In this document: piece by piece, positions 10,360 to 63,850 of the stretch
Position numbering within the stretch: position 1 is the stretch's first letter
Layout of the letters: every line of letters begins with the position of its first letter
The notes under the pieces: model-generated
The model's input: only the letters and a program-made list of their open reading frames with translations
The model's database searches: none
Told to the model about the DNA's origin: nothing
From: Lentimicrobiaceae bacterium
Lineage (GTDB): Bacteria > Bacteroidota > Bacteroidia > Bacteroidales > F082
Assembly (NCBI GenBank): GCA_015061295.1
Contig: SUWU01000004.1
Coordinates: 4,436-68,435, forward strand
DNA length: 64,000 bases
Direction: 5' to 3'
Position numbers and translations under genes: made by a program

Positions 10360-10737
10360 ATGGAAGAACTTCGTATAGATAAATGGTTATGGTGCGCTCG
10401 TCTTTTCAAGACGCGTACTCTTGCTGCCGATGCGTGTAAAGGTGGCAAGGTTAAGATTAATGACACTTCCATCAAGCCTTCGCGTGATGTCAAAGTTGGC
10501 GAGCAGATACAAGTACAGCTTGGTCAACTTCATAAAGTCGTTGAAGTAAAAAGCATTCCTAAGAGTCGCGTCTCGCCAAAGCAAGTAGAAGAAGTTTATA
10601 TCGATTTGACCCCGAAAGAAGAATACGAGAGAATAGAATTTATCCACGCATACAAGGTAGAATACCGCGACAGAGGCGCTGGGCGCCCGACTAAAAAAGA
10701 AAGAAGAGAAATCGACAGAATCAAAGGAGAGATGTAG
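10360..10737 (+). CDS. hslR: RNA-binding S4-domain protein (Hsp15/HslR-like)
   Basis: RIDKWLWCARLFKTRTLAADACKGGKVKIN S4 motif. 125 aa. Confidence 0.8.
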   Translation: MEELRIDKWLWCARLFKTRTLAADACKGGKVKINDTSIKPSRDVKVGEQIQVQLGQLHKVVEVKSIPKSRVSPKQVEEVYIDLTPKEEYERIEFIHAYKVEYRDRGAGRPTKKERREIDRIKGEM

Positions 10738-33076: not shown

Positions 33077-34750
33077 ATGGCAGACGATAAGAAGATAATA
33101 TTTTCGATGGTTGGCGTGAGCAAGATCATTCCGCCTTCAAGACAGATTTTGAAAGACATTTATTTGTCATTTTATTATGGAGCTAAAATCGGTATCATCG
33201 GTTTGAATGGCTCAGGTAAATCAACCTTGTTGAAAATCATTGCTGGCAAGGATAAATCCTATAACGGAGAAGTCGTTTTCTCTCCAGGATATTCCGTCGG
33301 TATGTTAGACCAGGAACCAGAATTGGATAACAGCAAGACTGTGAAGGAAGTCGTTCAAGAAGGCATTCAGGAAGTCGTTGACATTTTAAAGAGATATGAG
33401 GAAGTCAACGCCCGTTTCATGGAAGAACTCACCGACGACGAGATGAACGCTCTCGTGGAAGAACAAGGTCAGCTCACCGACCTGATTGAACAGCACGACG
33501 CTTGGGATTTGGACAGCAAACTTGAGAGAGCCATGGATGCGCTCAACTGTCCTGACGGAGACACTCCTGTGAAGAACCTCTCCGGTGGTGAACGCCGCCG
33601 CGTGGCATTGGTGCGACTTCTTCTCCAAGAACCAGATATTCTATTATTAGACGAACCAACCAACCACCTTGACGCAGAGGCAATCAACTGGTTAGAGCAA
33701 CACTTGCAACAATATAAAGGAACCGTTATCGCCGTCACCCACGACCGTTACTTTTTAGACCACGTGGCAGGCTGGATTTTAGAATTAGACCGCGGTGAAG
33801 GCATCCCATGGAAAGGCAACTACTCCTCATGGCTCGACCAGAAGACAGCACGTATGGCGATGGAAGAGAAGACAGAAAGCAAACGTCGCAAGACTTTGGA
33901 ACGCGAGCTCGAATGGGTCAGGATGGCACCGAAAGCACGTCACGCCAAAGGCAAGGCCCGTCTCGCTTCATATGAGAAACTCCTTAACGAAGATGTAAAA
34001 GAGAAAGAAGAGAAATTAGAAATATATATCCCGAACGGCGACCGTCTCGGCAACAAAGTCATCGAGGCAAAGAACATAACAAAAGCCTACGGCGATAAAC
34101 TGTTATTCGAGAATTTGAGTTTCTCGCTTCCTCCAGCAGGCATCGTGGGCGTCATAGGACCTAACGGCGCTGGTAAGACGACATTATTCCGTCTCATCAT
34201 GGGATTAGAGAAACCAGACTCTGGCGAGTTTGAGGTAGGCGAGACAGTAAAGACAGGCTACGTCGATCAGCAGCACGCCGACATCGACCCTGAGAAGACA
34301 GTTTGGGAAGTCATCTCTGGTGGCAACGAATTGATACAACTTGGCAAACGCACCATGAACTCAAGGGCTTACGTCTCGAGATTCAATTTCGGTGGCAACG
34401 ACCAGCAGAAGAAAGCAGGCGTATTGTCGGGCGGTGAACGTAACAGAATGCACCTCGCCCTTACGTTAAAACAAGAAGCTAATGTGCTTCTCCTCGACGA
34501 ACCTACCAACGACATCGACGTGAATACGCTGCGTGCTTTGGAAGAAGGTTTGGAAAACTTCGCGGGATGCGCCGTCGTTATCTCTCACGACAGATGGTTC
34601 TTAGATAGAATCGCGACTCATATCCTCGCTTTCGAAGGCGACTCACAAGTGTATTTCTTCGAAGGAAGTTATTCGGAATATGAGGAGAACAAGATTAAAC
34701 GACTTGGCAATGCAGCGCCTAAGAAGTTTAAATACAAGAAATTGATGTAA
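33077..34750 (+). CDS. ettA: Energy-dependent translational throttle ABC-F ATPase EttA
   Basis: Two ABC cassettes (GLNGSGKST, GPNGAGKTT; LSGGERRR, LSGGERNR). 557 aa. KKFKYKKL tail. Confidence 0.95.
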   Translation: MADDKKIIFSMVGVSKIIPPSRQILKDIYLSFYYGAKIGIIGLNGSGKSTLLKIIAGKDKSYNGEVVFSPGYSVGMLDQEPELDNSKTVKEVVQEGIQEVVDILKRYEEVNARFMEELTDDEMNALVEEQGQLTDLIEQHDAWDLDSKLERAMDALNCPDGDTPVKNLSGGERRRVALVRLLLQEPDILLLDEPTNHLDAEAINWLEQHLQQYKGTVIAVTHDRYFLDHVAGWILELDRGEGIPWKGNYSSWLDQKTARMAMEEKTESKRRKTLERELEWVRMAPKARHAKGKARLASYEKLLNEDVKEKEEKLEIYIPNGDRLGNKVIEAKNITKAYGDKLLFENLSFSLPPAGIVGVIGPNGAGKTTLFRLIMGLEKPDSGEFEVGETVKTGYVDQQHADIDPEKTVWEVISGGNELIQLGKRTMNSRAYVSRFNFGGNDQQKKAGVLSGGERNRMHLALTLKQEANVLLLDEPTNDIDVNTLRALEEGLENFAGCAVVISHDRWFLDRIATHILAFEGDSQVYFFEGSYSEYEENKIKRLGNAAPKKFKYKKLM

Positions 34751-34795
34751 AGTCGCAAGGTCGCAGAGACACATAAATATTGTGACCTTACGACC
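34751..34795. repeat. Inverted words GTCGCAAGGTCGCA / TGTGACCTTACGAC
   Basis: Starts right after the ettA stop and is followed by TAAAAA. Confidence 0.8.
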
Positions 34796-34810
34796 TAAAA
34801 ATTATCAACA

Positions 34811-35272
34811 ATGAAAAAAGCATTTAAAAAATTATCAACAATCTCTCTTTTTGTTTTGATAGCATTGCTGCCATCTTGCGACCCTGGATTTTATGATACA
34901 TTTAAAATAAAAAATGAATTAGGCAGAGACATCAAAGCTACTGATCTCCACGGTCATGATACTATCACCATCAAAAACGGCGAAGTTAAAATCGCCCTTG
35001 AAAATGGAGGATTGGGAACTTCACAATTCTCATATACAAATACTGACCGTTATCTACAAGAATACCCTGTCATTATCTTCGACAACAGCGTTGCATATAC
35101 AAGTAAGAACACTGAATTGATAAAACAATTTGAAAAGTCAATATTTAAAATGTCATGTTGGGAGATTTTATTTTTTGAAGATAGAAAAATGAGTGATAAT
35201 TGCGAGGTACTTTATACTATTACAGAAGAAGACTATCAGAATGCTATCATCTTAAACGAAATGAATAAATAA
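34811..35272 (+). CDS. Hypothetical lipoprotein
   Basis: Lipobox LLPSC. 153 aa, AT-rich, no family recognised. Confidence 0.55.
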   Translation: MKKAFKKLSTISLFVLIALLPSCDPGFYDTFKIKNELGRDIKATDLHGHDTITIKNGEVKIALENGGLGTSQFSYTNTDRYLQEYPVIIFDNSVAYTSKNTELIKQFEKSIFKMSCWEILFFEDRKMSDNCEVLYTITEEDYQNAIILNEMNK

Positions 35273-35305
35273 TATGGACAAAGTCTGTTGTCCGTTGACA
35301 TAAAA
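35267..35305 (+). repeat. 39-bp perfect direct repeat, copy 1 (left boundary of the ATPase cassette)
   Basis: aaataatatggacaaagtctgttgtccgttgacataaaa. Contains the small hairpin ggacaa..ttgtcc. Confidence 0.95.
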
Positions 35306-35310
35306 AATAT

Positions 35311-35318
35311 TATCTTTG
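35311..35318 (+). promoter_or_regulatory. Candidate -7 box for the AAA/DUF4143 gene
   Basis: tatctttg, followed by a perfect 14-bp palindrome at 35330-35343. Confidence 0.5.
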
Positions 35319-35329
35319 CAAGCAAAAAC

Positions 35330-35343
35330 TGTGTATATACACA
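35330..35343. promoter_or_regulatory. Perfect 14-bp palindrome, operator-like
   Basis: tgtgtatatacaca lies between the -7 box and the ATG of the ATPase gene. Confidence 0.35.
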
Positions 35344-35358
35344 AAAAGTGTTTCTGAT

Positions 35359-36597
35359 ATGATATTTAAAAGGGAGCAATATATAGAGAAGTTAATTAAT
35401 AACAAACATAATCACCTTGTCAAGATTGTTACTGGTTTAAGACGTGTAGGCAAGTCGTTTTTGCTTTTTAATCTTTACAAACAACATCTTATAAATAATG
35501 GTGTTCCTGAGAATCATATCATAGAATTTCAACTAGATTCTTTTTCACACAGAAAATATCGTAAAGCAGAGTTCCTATTTGAACACGTAGAAAGTTTGTC
35601 CAAACAAGACCATCAGATGTACTATGTTATGATTGATGAAGTACAGATGTTAGAGGATTTTGTAGATGTTTTGAATGGTTTTCTTCATATAAAAAATCTT
35701 GATGTATATGTAACAGGCAGTAACGCTAAATTTTTATCGTCAGATATAGTAACAGAGTTTAGAGGAAGAGGCGTACAGATTCATCTTCAACCTCTATCAT
35801 TCAAAGAAATAAAGGAAAAATCAACGGAAGACATTCTTTCTCTATGGAAAGATTACATATATTACGGTGGGTTACCTATGGTTGTCCTGGAGAAAAGCAA
35901 ATCACGTAAAGCAGAAATTCTTCAAGAACTAATTAGAGAAACGTATCTTAGCGATATTATCAACAGAAACAGCATTAAGAATGACGCTGAAATAGAGGAA
36001 CTTTTTTGTCTTTTGGCTTCCAACATAGGAGCTTTAACTAATCCTAATAAACTAGCAAACACGTTTGTTAGTGAAAAAAAAGTAAAGATAAGTCATAGCA
36101 CAATAAAATCTTACATCGATTATTTTATAGATTCATTTCTTATTAATAAAGCTATTAGATATGATATCAAAGGTAAGAAATATATAAATTCTCCTTATAA
36201 ATATTATTTTTCTGACATCGGATTGCGCAATGCCCTTCTCAACTTTCGACAAATAGAGAGTACACACATCATGGAAAATATCATATATAATTACATGATA
36301 GGTACAGGTTATAAAGTAGATGTAGGAATTATCACTCATTATTACAAAGATTCTACCGGCAAAACGACAAGAAGTGTATTAGAAATTGATTTTGTATGCA
36401 ATAAAAGTAGTGAGCGTATATATATTCAATCGGCATATTCAATACCTAACAAAGAAAAGCAACAACAAGAACAACGTTCGCTTACATTAACTGACGATTC
36501 TTTCACAAAAATAATATTGACAACTGATAATATACCAATTCATACATTGGATAATGGTATCATTATGATGAATGTATATGATTATCTTCTCAAATAA
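35359..36597 (+). CDS. AAA_14 / DUF4143-type ATP-binding protein
   Basis: Walker A GLRRVGKSF, Walker B YVMIDEVQ. C-terminal half is typical of the DUF4143 (predicted PD-(D/E)xK-like) family. Has its own -7 box at 35311-35318. Confidence 0.8.
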   Translation: MIFKREQYIEKLINNKHNHLVKIVTGLRRVGKSFLLFNLYKQHLINNGVPENHIIEFQLDSFSHRKYRKAEFLFEHVESLSKQDHQMYYVMIDEVQMLEDFVDVLNGFLHIKNLDVYVTGSNAKFLSSDIVTEFRGRGVQIHLQPLSFKEIKEKSTEDILSLWKDYIYYGGLPMVVLEKSKSRKAEILQELIRETYLSDIINRNSIKNDAEIEELFCLLASNIGALTNPNKLANTFVSEKKVKISHSTIKSYIDYFIDSFLINKAIRYDIKGKKYINSPYKYYFSDIGLRNALLNFRQIESTHIMENIIYNYMIGTGYKVDVGIITHYYKDSTGKTTRSVLEIDFVCNKSSERIYIQSAYSIPNKEKQQQEQRSLTLTDDSFTKIILTTDNIPIHTLDNGIIMMNVYDYLLK

Positions 36598-36599
36598 TA

Positions 36600-36638
36600 A
36601 AATAATATGGACAAAGTCTGTTGTCCGTTGACATAAAA
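36600..36638 (+). repeat. 39-bp perfect direct repeat, copy 2 (right boundary of the ATPase cassette)
   Basis: Identical 39-mer, 1333 bp downstream of copy 1. Confidence 0.95.
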
Positions 36639-36646
36639 TAAAAAGT

Positions 36647-37684
36647 ATGGAAAACGAAAAAATAGAATTAACAGAATTATCGGAGCTTGGCGAATTTGGT
36701 CTCATCGACAGATTGACTAAAGACATCAAGATTCATAATAAATCGACAATAAAAGGCATCGGAGACGACGCTGCCGTCATAGATCATAAAAGCGAGCAGA
36801 CCTTAGTCTCTGTCGATGTCTTGATTGAAGGCGTGCATTTCGACATGACATATATGCCGCTCAAACACTTAGGCTACAAAGCTGCCGTAGTGAACTTCTC
36901 CGACATCTACGCCATGAACGGAACACCGACACAGATTGTAGTCGGGATGGGAATCTCGAGCAAGTTCTCCGTCGAAGCCGTCGAAGAAATCTTCTCAGGA
37001 ATAAGATTGGCCTGCGACAACTATAAAGTCGATTTGGTCGGCGGCGACACAACAGCCAGCAAATCGGGACTCTTCATCTCGATAACAGTAATAGGTAAGG
37101 CTAAGAAGAACGACATCGTATTTCGTGACGGAGCCAAAGCTAACGACCTCTTATGCGTCAGCGGCAACCTCGGCGCAGCATACACCGGACTTCTCATCCT
37201 TGAAAGAGAGAAAGCCGCTTTCATGGCAGACCCTAACGTTCAGCCAGAACTCTATGGCTACGACTATATTCTCGAGAGACAGCTGAAGCCAGAGGCACGT
37301 AAAGATATAGTCGCTCAACTTAAAGAGTTAGAGATAAAACCTACTTCTATGATTGACATTTCCGACGGACTTGCATCTGAGATTTTACATCTCTGCAAAG
37401 ACTCTAAAGTAGGCTGCCGTATCTTCGAAGACCGTATCCCTATGAACCAGAAAACCATCGATGTAGCTAAGGAGTTCGACATCGTTCCTTGCGTGGCAGC
37501 TCTCAACGGAGGAGAAGACTACGAGCTTCTTTTCACAGTGAAACAAGAAGACTACGAGAAGGTCAAAGATATGAATGATGTGAGAATCATTGGTTTTATG
37601 ACACCAGACGAAAACGTCGCAGAATTGATAACCACCGACGAACATGTCATTCCGATAGAAGCACAAGGGTTCAAACATTTTTAA
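36647..37684 (+). CDS. thiL: Thiamine-monophosphate kinase
   Basis: GIGDDAAV, VGGDTT, GGEDYELLFT AIR-synthase-like motifs. Confidence 0.9.
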   Translation: MENEKIELTELSELGEFGLIDRLTKDIKIHNKSTIKGIGDDAAVIDHKSEQTLVSVDVLIEGVHFDMTYMPLKHLGYKAAVVNFSDIYAMNGTPTQIVVGMGISSKFSVEAVEEIFSGIRLACDNYKVDLVGGDTTASKSGLFISITVIGKAKKNDIVFRDGAKANDLLCVSGNLGAAYTGLLILEREKAAFMADPNVQPELYGYDYILERQLKPEARKDIVAQLKELEIKPTSMIDISDGLASEILHLCKDSKVGCRIFEDRIPMNQKTIDVAKEFDIVPCVAALNGGEDYELLFTVKQEDYEKVKDMNDVRIIGFMTPDENVAELITTDEHVIPIEAQGFKHF

Positions 37685-37688
37685 TAAC

Positions 37689-39554
37689 ATGACCATTCCC
37701 GACAAAATAAAATCAATCCTAAAAACCATTCCCACCGATCCAGGAGTGTATCAATATTTTGATGAGAAAGGTGAGATTATTTATGTCGGGAAAGCTAAGA
37801 ACCTGAAACGCCGCGTACACAGTTACTTCAACAAACAGCAGCAGAGCAGAAAGGTCAGCGTACTCGTGAGTCGCATCGCCGACATCAGATTTACCGTCGT
37901 GAACAGCGAGATGGAAGCGCTTCTCCTTGAAAACAATTTCATCAAGCAATATAAGCCGCGTTATAATATCTTGTTGAAAGACGACAAGACATACCCTTGG
38001 ATTTGTATTAAAAACGAACGTTTCCCGCGTATCTTCCTCACGAGGAAAAAAGTCAACGACGGCTCAACATATTTCGGACCTTATCCTTCGGTGATGACAG
38101 CAAAGACACTGCTTGAAATGCTGAGGCAGCTCTACCCTATCAGAAACTGTAAATTAATTTTAAAGGAAGAGAACATAAAGAACAACCATTATCGACCTTG
38201 TCTTGAATATCATATCGGAAACTGCAAGGCTCCTTGCGATGGAAGTATCAACGAAGATGACTATAACAAGATGATTTACAATGTTAAGAAAGTCATCAAA
38301 GGTAACATTCAGGAAGTCTTACGCGATATGAAATCGCAGATGATGGAGCACGCGGCAAAGTTAGAATTTGAACAGGCACAAGTCATAAAAGACAAATACG
38401 ATTTATTAGAAAACTATCACGCCAAGTCGGTAGTTTGCAGCAACACAGCCTACGACATGGAGGTCTTTTCTTTTGAAGACGCTGGCAATTCTTTCTATGT
38501 CAATTACATGAAAATCGTGGAAGGTGCCATCATACAATCGCATTCTTTTGAAATAAAACGTAAGTTGGAAGAGACAGCAGAAGAACTGCTTTCGATAGCG
38601 ATTGTTGAGATACATCAGATGAATGCTGGCACTGACAATGACTCTGACATTGACATTGACAATGACATTGACAATGACTCCTATATTAATAAGAATAAAA
38701 ATATTAGAGAGATTATTGTTCCGATAGAATTGAATATTAATATAGAAGGTGTGCGGCTGACTATTCCGCAGCGAGGCGAGAAATATGAGATTTTGGAACT
38801 GTCGCAGCGTAATGCTAAACAATATCGACTTGAGGTAGAGAAGCTACGTACCCTCGTCGATCCGGAGCGCCATACGAAGAGAATCCTAAACCAGATGAAA
38901 GAAGACCTGAAACTTCCTGTGCTACCAGAAGTGATAGAATGCTTCGACAACTCCAACTTTCAAGGCGACTATGCCGTAGCCGCGATGACGCAGTTTGTCA
39001 ATGCGAAACCTAACAAGAGCGGCTACCGACATTTCAATATCAAGACAGTAGAAGGGCCCAACGACTTCGCCTCTATGGAGGAGATAATATATAGAAGGTA
39101 TAGCAGACTTCTTAACGAAAACCAACGACTCCCCGATTTGATTGTCGTCGATGGCGGCAAGGGACAGCTTTCTTCAGCAGTTAAAATATTACAACAGTTA
39201 GGATTAAACGGTAAAATCAGCATCATCGGCATCGCGGAGAAGTTGGAAGAAATATATTTCCCTGGCGACAGCATACCTTTATATATAGACAAACGCTCCG
39301 AGACTTTGAAGGTGATTCAACACATAAGAGACGAAGCCCATAGATTCGGCATCACACATCACAGAAAGAAATTCGAGAAAGGCTTCATTCACTCAGAGCT
39401 CAACGACATCAAAGGCATTGGCAAGCATACCGCTGAGAAATTGATGTTAGAATTAAAATCTGTCAAGAATATCAAAGAAGCTGATTTAGAGACATTAACA
39501 GAGATTATCGGCAAAGCCAAGGCTGATATTATATGGAAATATTTCCATTCCTAA
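37689..39554 (+). CDS. uvrC: Excinuclease ABC subunit C, with a repeat-derived in-frame insertion
   Basis: GIY-YIG (GVYQYF..IIYVGKAKNL), UVR domain, endonuclease and HhH domains. Linker TDNDSDIDIDNDIDND is encoded by a GACAAT/GACATT array. Confidence 0.95.
   Translation: MTIPDKIKSILKTIPTDPGVYQYFDEKGEIIYVGKAKNLKRRVHSYFNKQQQSRKVSVLVSRIADIRFTVVNSEMEALLLENNFIKQYKPRYNILLKDDKTYPWICIKNERFPRIFLTRKKVNDGSTYFGPYPSVMTAKTLLEMLRQLYPIRNCKLILKEENIKNNHYRPCLEYHIGNCKAPCDGSINEDDYNKMIYNVKKVIKGNIQEVLRDMKSQMMEHAAKLEFEQAQVIKDKYDLLENYHAKSVVCSNTAYDMEVFSFEDAGNSFYVNYMKIVEGAIIQSHSFEIKRKLEETAEELLSIAIVEIHQMNAGTDNDSDIDIDNDIDNDSYINKNKNIREIIVPIELNINIEGVRLTIPQRGEKYEILELSQRNAKQYRLEVEKLRTLVDPERHTKRILNQMKEDLKLPVLPEVIECFDNSNFQGDYAVAAMTQFVNAKPNKSGYRHFNIKTVEGPNDFASMEEIIYRRYSRLLNENQRLPDLIVVDGGKGQLSSAVKILQQLGLNGKISIIGIAEKLEEIYFPGDSIPLYIDKRSETLKVIQHIRDEAHRFGITHHRKKFEKGFIHSELNDIKGIGKHTAEKLMLELKSVKNIKEADLETLTEIIGKAKADIIWKYFHS
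38632..38690. repeat. Word array R18 inside uvrC: hexamers GACAAT/GACATT/GACTCT
   Basis: Read in frame as TDNDSDIDIDNDIDND. 38633-38678 is identical to 56259-56304. Confidence 0.95.
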
Positions 39555-63700: not shown

Positions 63701-63774
63701 GACAAAAAAACTTTTGAATGATAATGACTTATAATTGTTTTTTTATAAAATTTCTGCTATCATTTTTGAAGGTG

Positions 63775-63782
63775 CAAAGATA
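63775..63782 (-). promoter_or_regulatory. Candidate -7 box for the SulP transporter gene
   Basis: Reverse complement tatctttg, 75 nt upstream of the start. Confidence 0.4.
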
Positions 63783-63850
63783 GGAAAAAAGTCTAAAGGC
63801 TAAGGACGAGAGATGAAAGTTTTTTATCTGAGAATGATTTTAAATGTGAA

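Follow-up and report, generated by a model that had tools for sequence, protein, structure and literature searches.

A PDC-S01 ATPase-nuclease gene probably inserted with long target duplication in the ettA-thiL spacer of a Bacteroidales genome

The ATPase unit between a lipoprotein-like gene and thiL in the window (the whole 64,000-nt stretch of DNA that was analysed) probably entered this spacer by insertion with long target duplication. The original prediction had described the gene as an accessory cassette flanked by a duplicated target, and single-copy empty sites in five sister species bear this out. An accessory single-gene unit, made up of a -7 box, an operator-like palindrome and an ATPase-nuclease ORF, would have entered a target that runs from the final codons of the lipoprotein to just before the thiL start and is now about 47 nt long. 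Since the target was left on both sides of the insert, neither neighbour gene would have been damaged. The features of the locus are given below.

33077-34750, + strand: ettA (energy-dependent translational throttle ABC-F; NCBIfam TIGR03719, E 3.6e-283), the left conserved border
34811-35272, + strand: lipoprotein-like ORF of 153 aa, low in GC and itself variably present in the ettA-thiL spacer
35259-35305, + strand: left target copy (T-L), which contains the 39-mer at 35267-35305 and aligns to the single copy of empty sites
35276-35299, + strand: spacer-repeat core GGACAAAGTC with the heptamers TGTTGTC and CGTTGAC, within T-L
35300-35305, + strand: A-rich tail of T-L, within the left target copy
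35306-36591, + strand: inserted unit proper (1286 bp), one transcription unit, missing at empty sites
35311-35318, + strand: predicted Bacteroidota-type -7 promoter box TATCTTTG (TAnnTTTG), read from the sequence
35330-35343, + strand: perfect 14-bp operator-like palindrome TGTGTATATACACA, downstream of the -7 box and upstream of the ATG
35359-36597, + strand: ATPase-nuclease gene, 412 aa (AAA_14 and DUF4143; PADLOC PDC-S01)
36592-36638, + strand: right target copy (T-R), which contains the 39-mer at 36600-36638 and retains the native upstream sequence of thiL
36647-37684, + strand: thiL (thiamine-phosphate kinase; NCBIfam TIGR01379, E 2.4e-92), the right conserved border

The DNA comes from an uncultured Bacteroidales bacterium of the gut or rumen, whose genome measures 2.1 Mb. 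In 14 related genomes ettA adjoins thiL, with 0-3 genes between them; the ettA-thiL spacer is hypervariable, and ettA and thiL are its conserved borders. The lipoprotein-like ORF, for which Pfam, NCBIfam and PADLOC gave no match, is missing from G004, G009, G061, G065 and G070a and is a mere 3' remnant in G044 and L128-L131. The cassette had been described as more AT-rich than the genes around it, and its GC content is indeed 0.29-0.33, compared with 0.48-0.51 for ettA, 0.43-0.50 for thiL and 0.38 for the whole genome. The lipoprotein gene also lies inside this low-GC stretch. A search of positions 34600-36800 against Rfam, with E values up to 1, detected no known RNA in the repeat or the cassette.

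The 39-mer AAATAATATGGACAAAGTCTGTTGTCCGTTGACATAAAA occurs at 35267-35305 and 36600-36638 on the + strand, 1333 bp apart and with 0 mismatches, and 0 of 100 shuffles gave a match. These perfect direct repeats bracket the ATPase gene as predicted, and when up to three mismatches were allowed in the genome-wide check, the same two copies were the only ones in the whole assembly. The ORF coordinates also confirm the described placement of the repeats, after the lipoprotein stop and after the ATPase stop just before thiL. The left 39-mer begins on the final codon and stop of the lipoprotein (AAA TAA, 35267-35272), and the right 39-mer, which begins 2 nt past the ATPase stop (36595-36597), stops 8 nt short of the thiL ATG (36647).

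The 39-mer is the still-identical part of two longer target copies. The 8 nt to its left, AAATGAAT versus AAATAATA, are identical at 5 of 8 positions; judged from this alignment, the similarity probably extends 8 nt leftward, which gives a duplicated target of about 47 nt (35259-35305 and 36592-36638) with about 44 of 47 positions identical. The Lys codon and stop of the ATPase gene (36592-36597) lie inside the right copy, and the target as a whole spans from the final codons of the lipoprotein to 8 nt before the thiL ATG. In L130, a 30-nt exact repeat (AAATAAATAATTAAAAAACAGGACAAAGTC) from the lipoprotein stop region is found again at the ATPase stop, and duplication that reaches into the locus-specific flank is also present in G018, L128 and L129. 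The duplicated sequence includes 20 nt of locus-specific sequence from the lipoprotein stop region, beyond the conserved part of the dispersed repeat family described below.

A search of relatives for the arrangement lipoprotein, 39-mer, thiL, which had been proposed as a check, found such empty sites in G006, G021, G041, G046 and G070b, each with the lipoprotein gene, one target copy and thiL. Occupied genomes carry a target copy, the ATPase unit and a second target copy. Aligned with the 39-mer, the single copy of G006 is identical at 38 of 39 positions, leaving aside a 14-nt indel that corresponds to two additional heptamers in this genome, and the ancestral target would have measured about 60 nt if four heptamers were present. 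T-R is orthologous to the element directly 5' of thiL in G004, G006, G021, G018, G041, G044, G046 and G070b. Lineages without the ATPase gene would either never have had it or have lost it through recombination between the two copies.

The exact 39-mer is specific to this locus, in that it occurs twice in the assembly; this does not hold for its core, which belongs to a dispersed spacer-repeat family. Members of the family consist of GGACAAAGTC, followed by 1-4 heptamers of the form [CT]GTTG[AT]C and a run of A. Of the 61 genomes of the genus, 16 contain the core, with 5-52 copies each; repeat-rich genomes often have it in consecutive spacers, and about 15 elements were found in this genome. 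The repeat lies 5' of a co-oriented start codon in 39 of 57 intergenic copies, with a median distance of 42 nt from the ATG. Because the repeat core is dispersed, part of the perfect identity of the two copies may reflect constraint on the family or homogenisation instead of a recent event.

Campbell-type homologous recombination would make use of such a repeat as portable homology: a circle with the ATPase gene and one repeat would have crossed over at the spacer repeat upstream of thiL. The copy numbers of the core and its frequent occurrence in consecutive spacers fit this route, and a paralogue in this genome has a spacer-repeat element 147 nt upstream. We nevertheless consider it distinctly unlikely, because the 20 nt of the lipoprotein stop region that were duplicated are outside the conserved part of the family, the element stands on both sides solely at the two ettA-thiL copies among the paralogue loci scanned, and independent insertions of the orthogroup, as well as other cassettes, have unrelated flanking repeats. 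A cassette that was already flanked may have spread between lineages later by this route. The idea that the spacer repeat belongs to a general ATPase cassette was also rejected, given that the two-sided arrangement is limited to these two copies among the loci scanned. It makes up most of the target, yet is incidental to the insertion event.

A coincidence, in which the ATPase gene was a resident and two members of the spacer-repeat family arrived or were homogenised independently of each other, one 5' of the ATPase gene and one 5' of thiL, would accord with the usual position of the repeat 5' of co-oriented starts and with its runs in consecutive spacers. Set against the existence of single-copy empty sites, the duplication of non-element sequence from the lipoprotein stop region and the stop codon that the right copy supplies to the ATPase gene, such an origin is extremely improbable; a pair in adjacent spacers is expected about 0.1 times (an estimate from about 15 elements and an assumed number of about 1800 spacers).

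The original prediction had also raised capture at a specific hairpin-containing site. This is not supported, as flanking repeats elsewhere are unrelated in sequence and the hairpin of the 39-mer, which has a stem of 6 bp, is not conserved across the repeat family; many members are without its 3' arm. A terminator function was likewise rejected as a defining feature, as the + strand is without a T run and a consensus scan finds a terminator on the minus strand only.

Insertion with long target duplication, which we favour, is an old event here. Current mobility at the locus, implied by the earlier suggestion of a self-mobile unit, is not supported, given junctions that are identical in two deep subclades, an ATPase gene that has diverged as much as thiL, and the occupation of all conspecific contigs. 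These contigs (13/13, found via the exact thiL or lipoprotein protein) have both copies perfect. A joined-flank pattern, which represents the deletion allele, matched no metagenome contig, and a looser flank pattern matched two, of which one is a further occupied allele and one has an upstream part too short to tell. G000, G018 and L128-L131 share both junctions exactly, and the ATPases of the ettA-thiL site form one clade (support 100/99). G000 and G018 belong to different well-supported subclades. A recent transfer between them was set aside because the divergence of the ATPase gene equals that of thiL (81.4% versus 82.9% nt identity).

On these comparisons the insertion has a single, old origin; it is now fixed in this species and kept in a few other lineages. 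The 5' side of both copies has a subclade-specific state (TAATAT in group A, TTAAAAAACA in group B), so a single ancient insertion would also require either some gene conversion of one copy by the other or a transfer across lineages. An old transfer between lineages carrying the ATPase cassette may have taken place. Moreover, the presence of the ATPase gene in one genome per subclade implies several independent losses.

The ATPase product matches Pfam AAA_14 (PF13173) and DUF4143 (PF13635) above cut-offs (E 1.4e-29 and 2.6e-20), and the PADLOC model PDLC04787 (PDC-S01) over its full length (residues 2-411, E 9.2e-109). A possible link to defence had been proposed, and this match to a candidate defence family agrees with it; the gene may have an anti-phage function. 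Walker A residues G26, G31, K32 and S33 and Walker B residues D93 and E94 do not vary across 21 aligned sequences, and the same alignment, together with an AlphaFold2 model, places the invariant acidic residues D321, E342 and D344 in a predicted C-terminal alpha/beta domain. The model has a pLDDT of 89.6, and its best fold matches are the archaeal AAA+ protein SSO1545, STAND NB-ARC and Cdc6/Orc1; the fold search returned AAA+/STAND matches only, and a sequence search against solved structures gave no match. As modelled, the protein is a predicted AAA+/STAND-like ATPase with a winged helix and a DUF4143 domain of the PD-(D/E)XK type. DUF4143 is among the PD-(D/E)XK families that have been listed (PMC3424549).

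A distance of 5 nt separates the -7 box of the predicted ATPase promoter from the left copy, so that the -33 position falls inside T-L. TAnnTTTG is the established -7 consensus of Bacteroides promoters. The same box is found in the same place upstream of paralogues and orthologues. Around the palindrome, 37 nt are identical in G018, compared with 81% identity for the ATPase gene overall; paralogues have different palindromes at the same place, and orthologues in other contexts have two copies.

The ATPase orthogroup (81-87% at the amino acid level) is present in at least seven genomic contexts. Three contexts other than ettA-thiL have flanking direct repeats, of 64 bp (63/64), 29 bp (27-28/29) and 22 bp (20/22), and 3 of the seven have no flanking repeat. 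An empty site was verified for the context with the 64-bp repeat (L143 versus L144, genomes about 96% identical); none was found for the 29-bp repeat, where all inspected contigs that extend past the neighbouring gene are occupied. Repeat sequences and insert ends differ at every site of the orthogroup. The expectation that other DUF4143 copies are flanked by long duplications is supported, with repeats of unrelated sequence. Direct repeats of 20 bp or more flank 12 of 25 paralogue loci versus 8 of 250 control ORFs, the controls being taken from one genome, and at least 3 of the 8 repeat-flanked controls are ATPase paralogues or known cassettes.

The insert is one ORF carrying only AAA_14 and DUF4143. 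The reported lack of an integrase or transposase was verified for the 1286-bp insert, whose two ends show no terminal inverted repeats. A DNA transposon or miniature inverted-repeat element was rejected on the absence of terminal inverted repeats, on ends that differ between insertions and on duplications of 22-75 bp. An integrase-borne element was rejected as well, as no recombinase is located in or beside the insert and the repeats at four sites are unrelated and have no common att core.

Site-specific integration could also be performed by a recombinase in trans, with the two copies as attL and attR of a degenerate integrase-less element, similar to a cis-mobilisable element. Direct repeats of 30-60 bp are typical around integrase-borne islands, and three tyrosine recombinases (PF00589 matches) are encoded in the assembly, all on other contigs. 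However, the 1286-bp insert has neither an integrase nor space for a remnant, the -7 box is 5 nt away from the left copy, the stop codon is inside the right copy, and the repeats at the four sites (22-64 bp) are without a common core and border insert ends that differ. This origin is therefore very improbable.

Other cassettes of this genome have similar duplications. A 75-bp duplication surrounds three surface-protein genes and a 44-bp duplication surrounds a TdeIII restriction enzyme with an HNH gene, and an empty site was found for each. The YhcG, hipBA, WG-repeat and 138-aa cassettes gave no empty sites, their synteny not being conserved or their flanks being multicopy. Because non-defence cassettes (secreted surface proteins) share the signature, a host-level rather than a cargo-driven process is suggested. 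By the favoured route, a break with long staggered ends would have been joined to a DNA fragment and then filled in, or a template switch would have occurred during replication. The encoded nuclease may have had some part in the process. It is rather unlikely that PDC-S01 genes are autonomous selfish single-gene elements whose own ATPase-nuclease makes or exploits the long-staggered break.

Minimal mobile elements of Neisseria are variable cassettes between conserved genes; their exchange is attributed to homologous recombination within the flanking genes, and they are not known to have a target duplication. The ettA-thiL interval resembles them in its 0-3 different genes per species between the same conserved neighbours, but differs in the presence of a target duplication. 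Integron cassettes with attC sites are comparable in that a single gene is bracketed by a repeated, hairpin-capable element occurring in runs. Unlike integron cassettes, the ATPase unit has its own predicted promoter, its repeat is without attC architecture, the duplication includes locus-specific sequence and other insertions use unrelated repeats. An integron cassette was rejected, as the unit has a -7 box and palindrome of its own that are conserved across paralogues and no IntI-type integrase adjoins it (genome-wide, PF00589 matches only).

Insertion with long target duplication was reportedly described in a paper of 2000 (Gene 259:99). Its signature and criteria have been published for restriction-modification genes (Furuta, Abe and Kobayashi 2010, NAR, PMC2853133). 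In agreement with these criteria, the repeats at ettA-thiL exceed 30 bp, one copy is present at the empty site, and the insert is smaller than 20 kb and contains no mobility gene or inverted repeats. The criteria also ask that the repeat be more than a multicopy element of the genome, so as to exclude chance insertion between repeats; here the exact 39-mer is found twice and its core is dispersed, while the duplication in G018, L128, L129 and L130 takes in locus-specific flank. As in the published cases, the ATPase unit is a defence-type cargo with a (predicted) nuclease, free of integrase, transposase and terminal repeats; direct repeats of more than 30 bp align to one copy in the empty-site genome, repeat lengths and sequences vary by site, and the repeats extend over the stop or start of neighbouring genes, which remain intact. 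The cargo differs, being a single PDC-S01 ATPase-nuclease gene instead of a restriction-modification pair, though restriction-modification cargo was a criterion of the screen and not of the rearrangement itself, and the TdeIII restriction cassette of the same genome has cargo of that kind. Further differences are the Bacteroidales host, whose phylum is missing from the genus list of PMC2853133, a target that is mostly a dispersed spacer repeat, and the non-defence surface-protein cassettes of this genome that share the signature.

PDC-S01, an ATPase fused to a PD-(D/E)XK domain, has been described as the commonest single defence locus of rumen genomes and as fourth among defence-candidate loci across prokaryotes, with experimental validation of its anti-phage activity pending (PMC13356809, PMC12988326). 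The same holds for most candidates of this kind, and PMC12988326 cites no validation for PDC-S01. In the literature searched, no description of its mobility mode or of flanking repeats was found. The present analysis places PDC-S01 beside restriction-modification genes in a poorly understood integrase-free insertion class, because the orthogroup has at least seven contexts, two verified empty sites have different long duplications, and about half of the paralogue loci are flanked by repeats, compared with about 3% of controls. The many natural pairs of occupied and empty sites in metagenomes are a source from which the insertion mechanism may be inferred. In genome annotation, repeats of this type can serve as markers of accessory gene units and as predictors of exact deletion alleles. 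If PDC-S01 genes were selfish elements after all, this would reveal an integrase-free mobility mode for what is reportedly the commonest candidate defence gene of the rumen, and would make these genes a tractable system in which to study how long target duplication arises.

The 39-mer AAATAATATGGACAAAGTCTGTTGTCCGTTGACATAAAA occurs on the + strand at 35267-35305 and 36600-36638 and is perfect in both places, as stated in the original prediction of an ATPase gene bracketed by 39-bp direct repeats. Shuffled versions of the window gave no match to the pair, and a genome-wide search allowing 3 mismatches returned only these two copies in the whole assembly (2.1 Mb, 63 contigs). ORF and family calls also bore out the proposed gene arrangement. 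The GC content is 0.29-0.33 across the lipoprotein and ATPase genes vs 0.43-0.51 in ettA and thiL (genome mean, 0.38), in agreement with the suggested AT-richness of the cassette, and the low GC also spans the lipoprotein gene. The features of the region are:

33077-34750, ettA
34811-35272, 153-aa lipoprotein-like ORF without a family match
35259-35305, T-L, left copy of the duplicated target
35276-35305, spacer-repeat element, left
35306-36591, insert
35311-35318, -7 box TAnnTTTG, 5 nt inside the left end of the insert
35330-35343, 14-bp palindrome within the insert
35359-36597, 412-aa AAA_14+DUF4143 protein (the ATPase)
36592-36638, T-R, right copy of the duplicated target
36609-36638, spacer-repeat element, right
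36647-37684, thiL
37689-39554, uvrC

The ettA-thiL interval (window 34751-36646) is a hot spot, hypervariable among 14 related genomes, mostly incomplete metagenome-assembled ones, and holds 0-3 genes by species. Its contents are as follows (G000 is the genome of the window; other G numbers are relatives of the genus):

G004, G009, G061, G065, G070a: empty of genes
G044: 3' remnant of the lipoprotein gene only
G041, G046, G070b: lipoprotein gene only
G021, G006: lipoprotein gene and one or two extra 373-376-aa genes
G060: ~2.7 kb of other genes
G000, G018: lipoprotein gene and ATPase

Five genomes (G006, G021, G041, G046, and G070b) have a single element copy between the lipoprotein stop and thiL. 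These are the empty sites that had been anticipated. The lipoprotein gene itself is fast-evolving (~70% nucleotide identity where thiL has 83-90%), and is cut to a short 3' remnant in G044 and in contigs L128-L131.

The extent of the target can be read from these comparisons. The 20-nt AAATAAATAATTAAAAAACA sits after the lipoprotein gene in empty-site genomes and precedes the right copy in G018, L128, L129, and L130, and L130 has an exact repeat of 30 nt that starts 6 nt ahead of where the ATPase stop codon ends. The target therefore extended from the last codons of the lipoprotein up to the A-rich tail that closes the element, and the 39-mer pair is a target duplication reaching past the dispersed element. 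The end of the ATPase ORF, AAA TAA, is provided by the right copy. The insert contains the -7 box, the palindrome, the ATPase ORF, and nothing more; no terminal inverted repeats were found at its ends. A single event placed a self-contained transcription unit here and left ~47-60 nt of target on either side of it, which preserved the lipoprotein stop and the sequence upstream of thiL.

The 39-mer core belongs to a dispersed spacer-repeat family. Of 61 genomes sampled from the genus, 16 contain the pattern GGACAAAGTC[CT]GTTG[AT]C (at most 1 mismatch), with 5 to 52 copies per genome vs 0-1 for a reversed control pattern, and G000 itself has ~15 elements; further copies lie at loci L027-L070. Aligned copies consist of the head GGACAAAGTC, 1-4 [CT]GTTG[AT]C heptamers, and (A/T)TAAAAAAA, and other short-period word arrays are frequent upstream. 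Of the 57 copies that lie between genes, 39 have a start codon in the same orientation after them (median distance 42 nt), and 41 come after the end of a gene in that orientation. Elements are sometimes present as tandem doublets, and the family is lineage-specific; Rfam gave no matches for the spacer repeat. Capture at a specific hairpin-containing site, as had been proposed, was not borne out: the hairpin varies within the family, single-heptamer copies being without the 3' arm, and flanking repeats elsewhere are unrelated.

Both junctions are nucleotide-identical in G000, G018, and four contigs from metagenomes or genomes (L128-L131). A tree of ettA and thiL resolved two groups (support 100/99) and separated G000 from G018; nucleotide identity between the two genomes is 81.4% for the ATPase and 82.9% for thiL. 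In the protein tree, the ettA-thiL ATPases form a single clade (100/99), in which G000 is sister to all others. The shared junctions, separate groups, matching divergence, and single ATPase clade point to one old insertion at ettA-thiL. Left copies of group B, one of the two groups of this comparison, share a private 3' end, TGTTGATATAAAAG, unlike the right copies, so the two have drifted apart. Within each group, the 5' sides of both copies carry subclade-specific states, which requires some conversion between copies or an old transfer.

The same gene lineage is found elsewhere. The 412-aa orthologues (81-87% identity; public labels Prevotella sp. or Bacteroidaceae) make up at least 120 clusters. 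A long branch sets them off from the closest paralogues, which share no more than 54% identity, and they occupy at least 7 distinct neighbourhoods. Flanking direct repeats, unrelated in sequence to each other, were found in three orthologue contexts and in none of three others:

P0062: 64 bp (63/64 matching), at -213 and +72 relative to the ORF
P0067: 29 bp (27-28/29), at -181 and +170
P0076: 22 bp (20/22), at -125 and +17

For P0062, an empty site with one 64-bp copy is present in L144, from a genome ~96% identical. Since the DNA carried beside the gene varies in amount between contexts, the unit is without defined element ends. Flanking direct repeats at other DUF4143 copies, as envisaged originally, extend to paralogues: at 12/25 paralogue loci of the genus the two flanks share a direct repeat of 20 bp or more, vs 8/250 random control ORFs (300-500 aa, drawn from G000 alone). 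Some of the paralogue repeats are word arrays or members of hairpin families and not proven copies of a target. The eight positive controls include two ATPase paralogues, one WG-repeat cassette (contig C56), and one gene adjoining an ATPase paralogue.

Other repeats also accompany paralogues. At G000:C31:55495-58323 (L066), hairpins AGTCACACG(TCC/GAC)GTGTGACTCTAC, which read on the opposite strand as GTAG and then a palindrome (REP-like), are found at three places within 3 kb and flank a paralogue and its neighbour; similar hairpins are present in relatives. The 10.7-kb contig C32 has inverted ~100-nt copies at both ends (1-110 and 10590-10702), and carries a truncated paralogue and further short hairpin repeats.

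Upstream regions were compared for window 35311-35358, paralogues in L015, L016, and L072-L089, and orthologues in L132-L143. All AAA_14/DUF4143 paralogues have the -7 box, ~11 nt, and then a 12-14-bp palindrome TGnnn...nnnCA, whose sequence varies by paralogue with symmetry kept (TGTGTATATACACA, TGCGTATATACGCA, TGTCACATGTGACA, TGCGGATAACCGCA). Orthologues in other contexts have a second palindrome copy ~118 nt upstream. The conserved symmetry suggests an operator or 5' hairpin. A structure model of the protein (pLDDT 89.6) combines an ATPase of AAA+/STAND-like fold with helical and winged-helix segments and an alpha/beta domain at the C-terminus, with SSO1545, NB-ARC proteins, and Cdc6/Orc1 as best fold matches; palindrome and winged helix together possibly serve autoregulation.

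G000 was scanned for isolated direct repeats that are perfect over at least 22 bp and lie 0.3-6 kb apart. This gave 23 pairs, the longest of which flank accessory units:

C48:1337-5422 (L118), 75 bp, three secreted/lipoprotein genes; empty site in G006 and G018
C40:46330-49348 (L120), 44 bp, TdeIII restriction enzyme, HNH gene, and 242-aa gene; empty site in G006 (95-99% identity)
C14:68207-68260 (window 63772-63825), 54 bp perfect, 355-aa YhcG/DUF1016 PD-(D/E)XK nuclease gene; second copy at C14:69375, past the window end (period 1168 bp)
C14:110-806 (L121), 42 bp perfect, 138-aa gene
C38:14062-15861 (L122), 31 bp perfect, hipBA (hipB-hipA) module
C56:23457-25167 (L123), 29+30-bp composite perfect, WG-repeat gene

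L118 and L120 are two more cases of insertion with long target duplication; in L118, the adjoining gene's 3' end forms the repeat. For the YhcG cassette, a syntenic empty site was sought in five relatives and none was found. A Flavo-1 RNA (RF01705, 45.7 bits) lies at C56:25725-25805 (L123:4226-4306); such copies, ~88 nt, number dozens per genome in relatives (80-99% identity).

Insertion with long target duplication has been described for restriction-modification genes without any other mobile element; the repeats frequently cover the start or stop of adjoining genes, double-strand breakage was proposed as the cause, and a life cycle of insertion, amplification, and release was suggested (PMC2853133). 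The ATPase cassette has the structure described there, with direct repeats longer than 30 bp that align to one copy at empty sites and an insert without mobility gene or terminal inverted repeats; it differs in cargo and host phylum. Repeat lengths that vary over 22-75 bp, targets unrelated in sequence, and the lack of defined ends speak against placement by a dedicated recombinase. The encoded protein belongs to the PADLOC candidate defence family PDC-S01, in which an ATPase is joined to a PD-(D/E)XK domain and which is highly abundant in rumen genomes (PMC13356809, PMC12988326), and DUF4143 is counted among PD-(D/E)XK families (PMC3424549). Self-insertion by the encoded nuclease is unlikely, and a host-level process combined with selection for accessory genes is the preferred reading, because cassettes without nucleases share the same signature. 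As to the route, the fragment was probably either ligated at a break with long staggered ends, followed by gap filling, or copied in through template switching. All 13 conspecific contigs, from different metagenomes, are occupied with both 39-mers perfect, and no deletion allele was seen among them. The T-L/T-R pair would be a substrate for precise deletion, and such deletion between the copies could explain the patchy distribution of the cassette.
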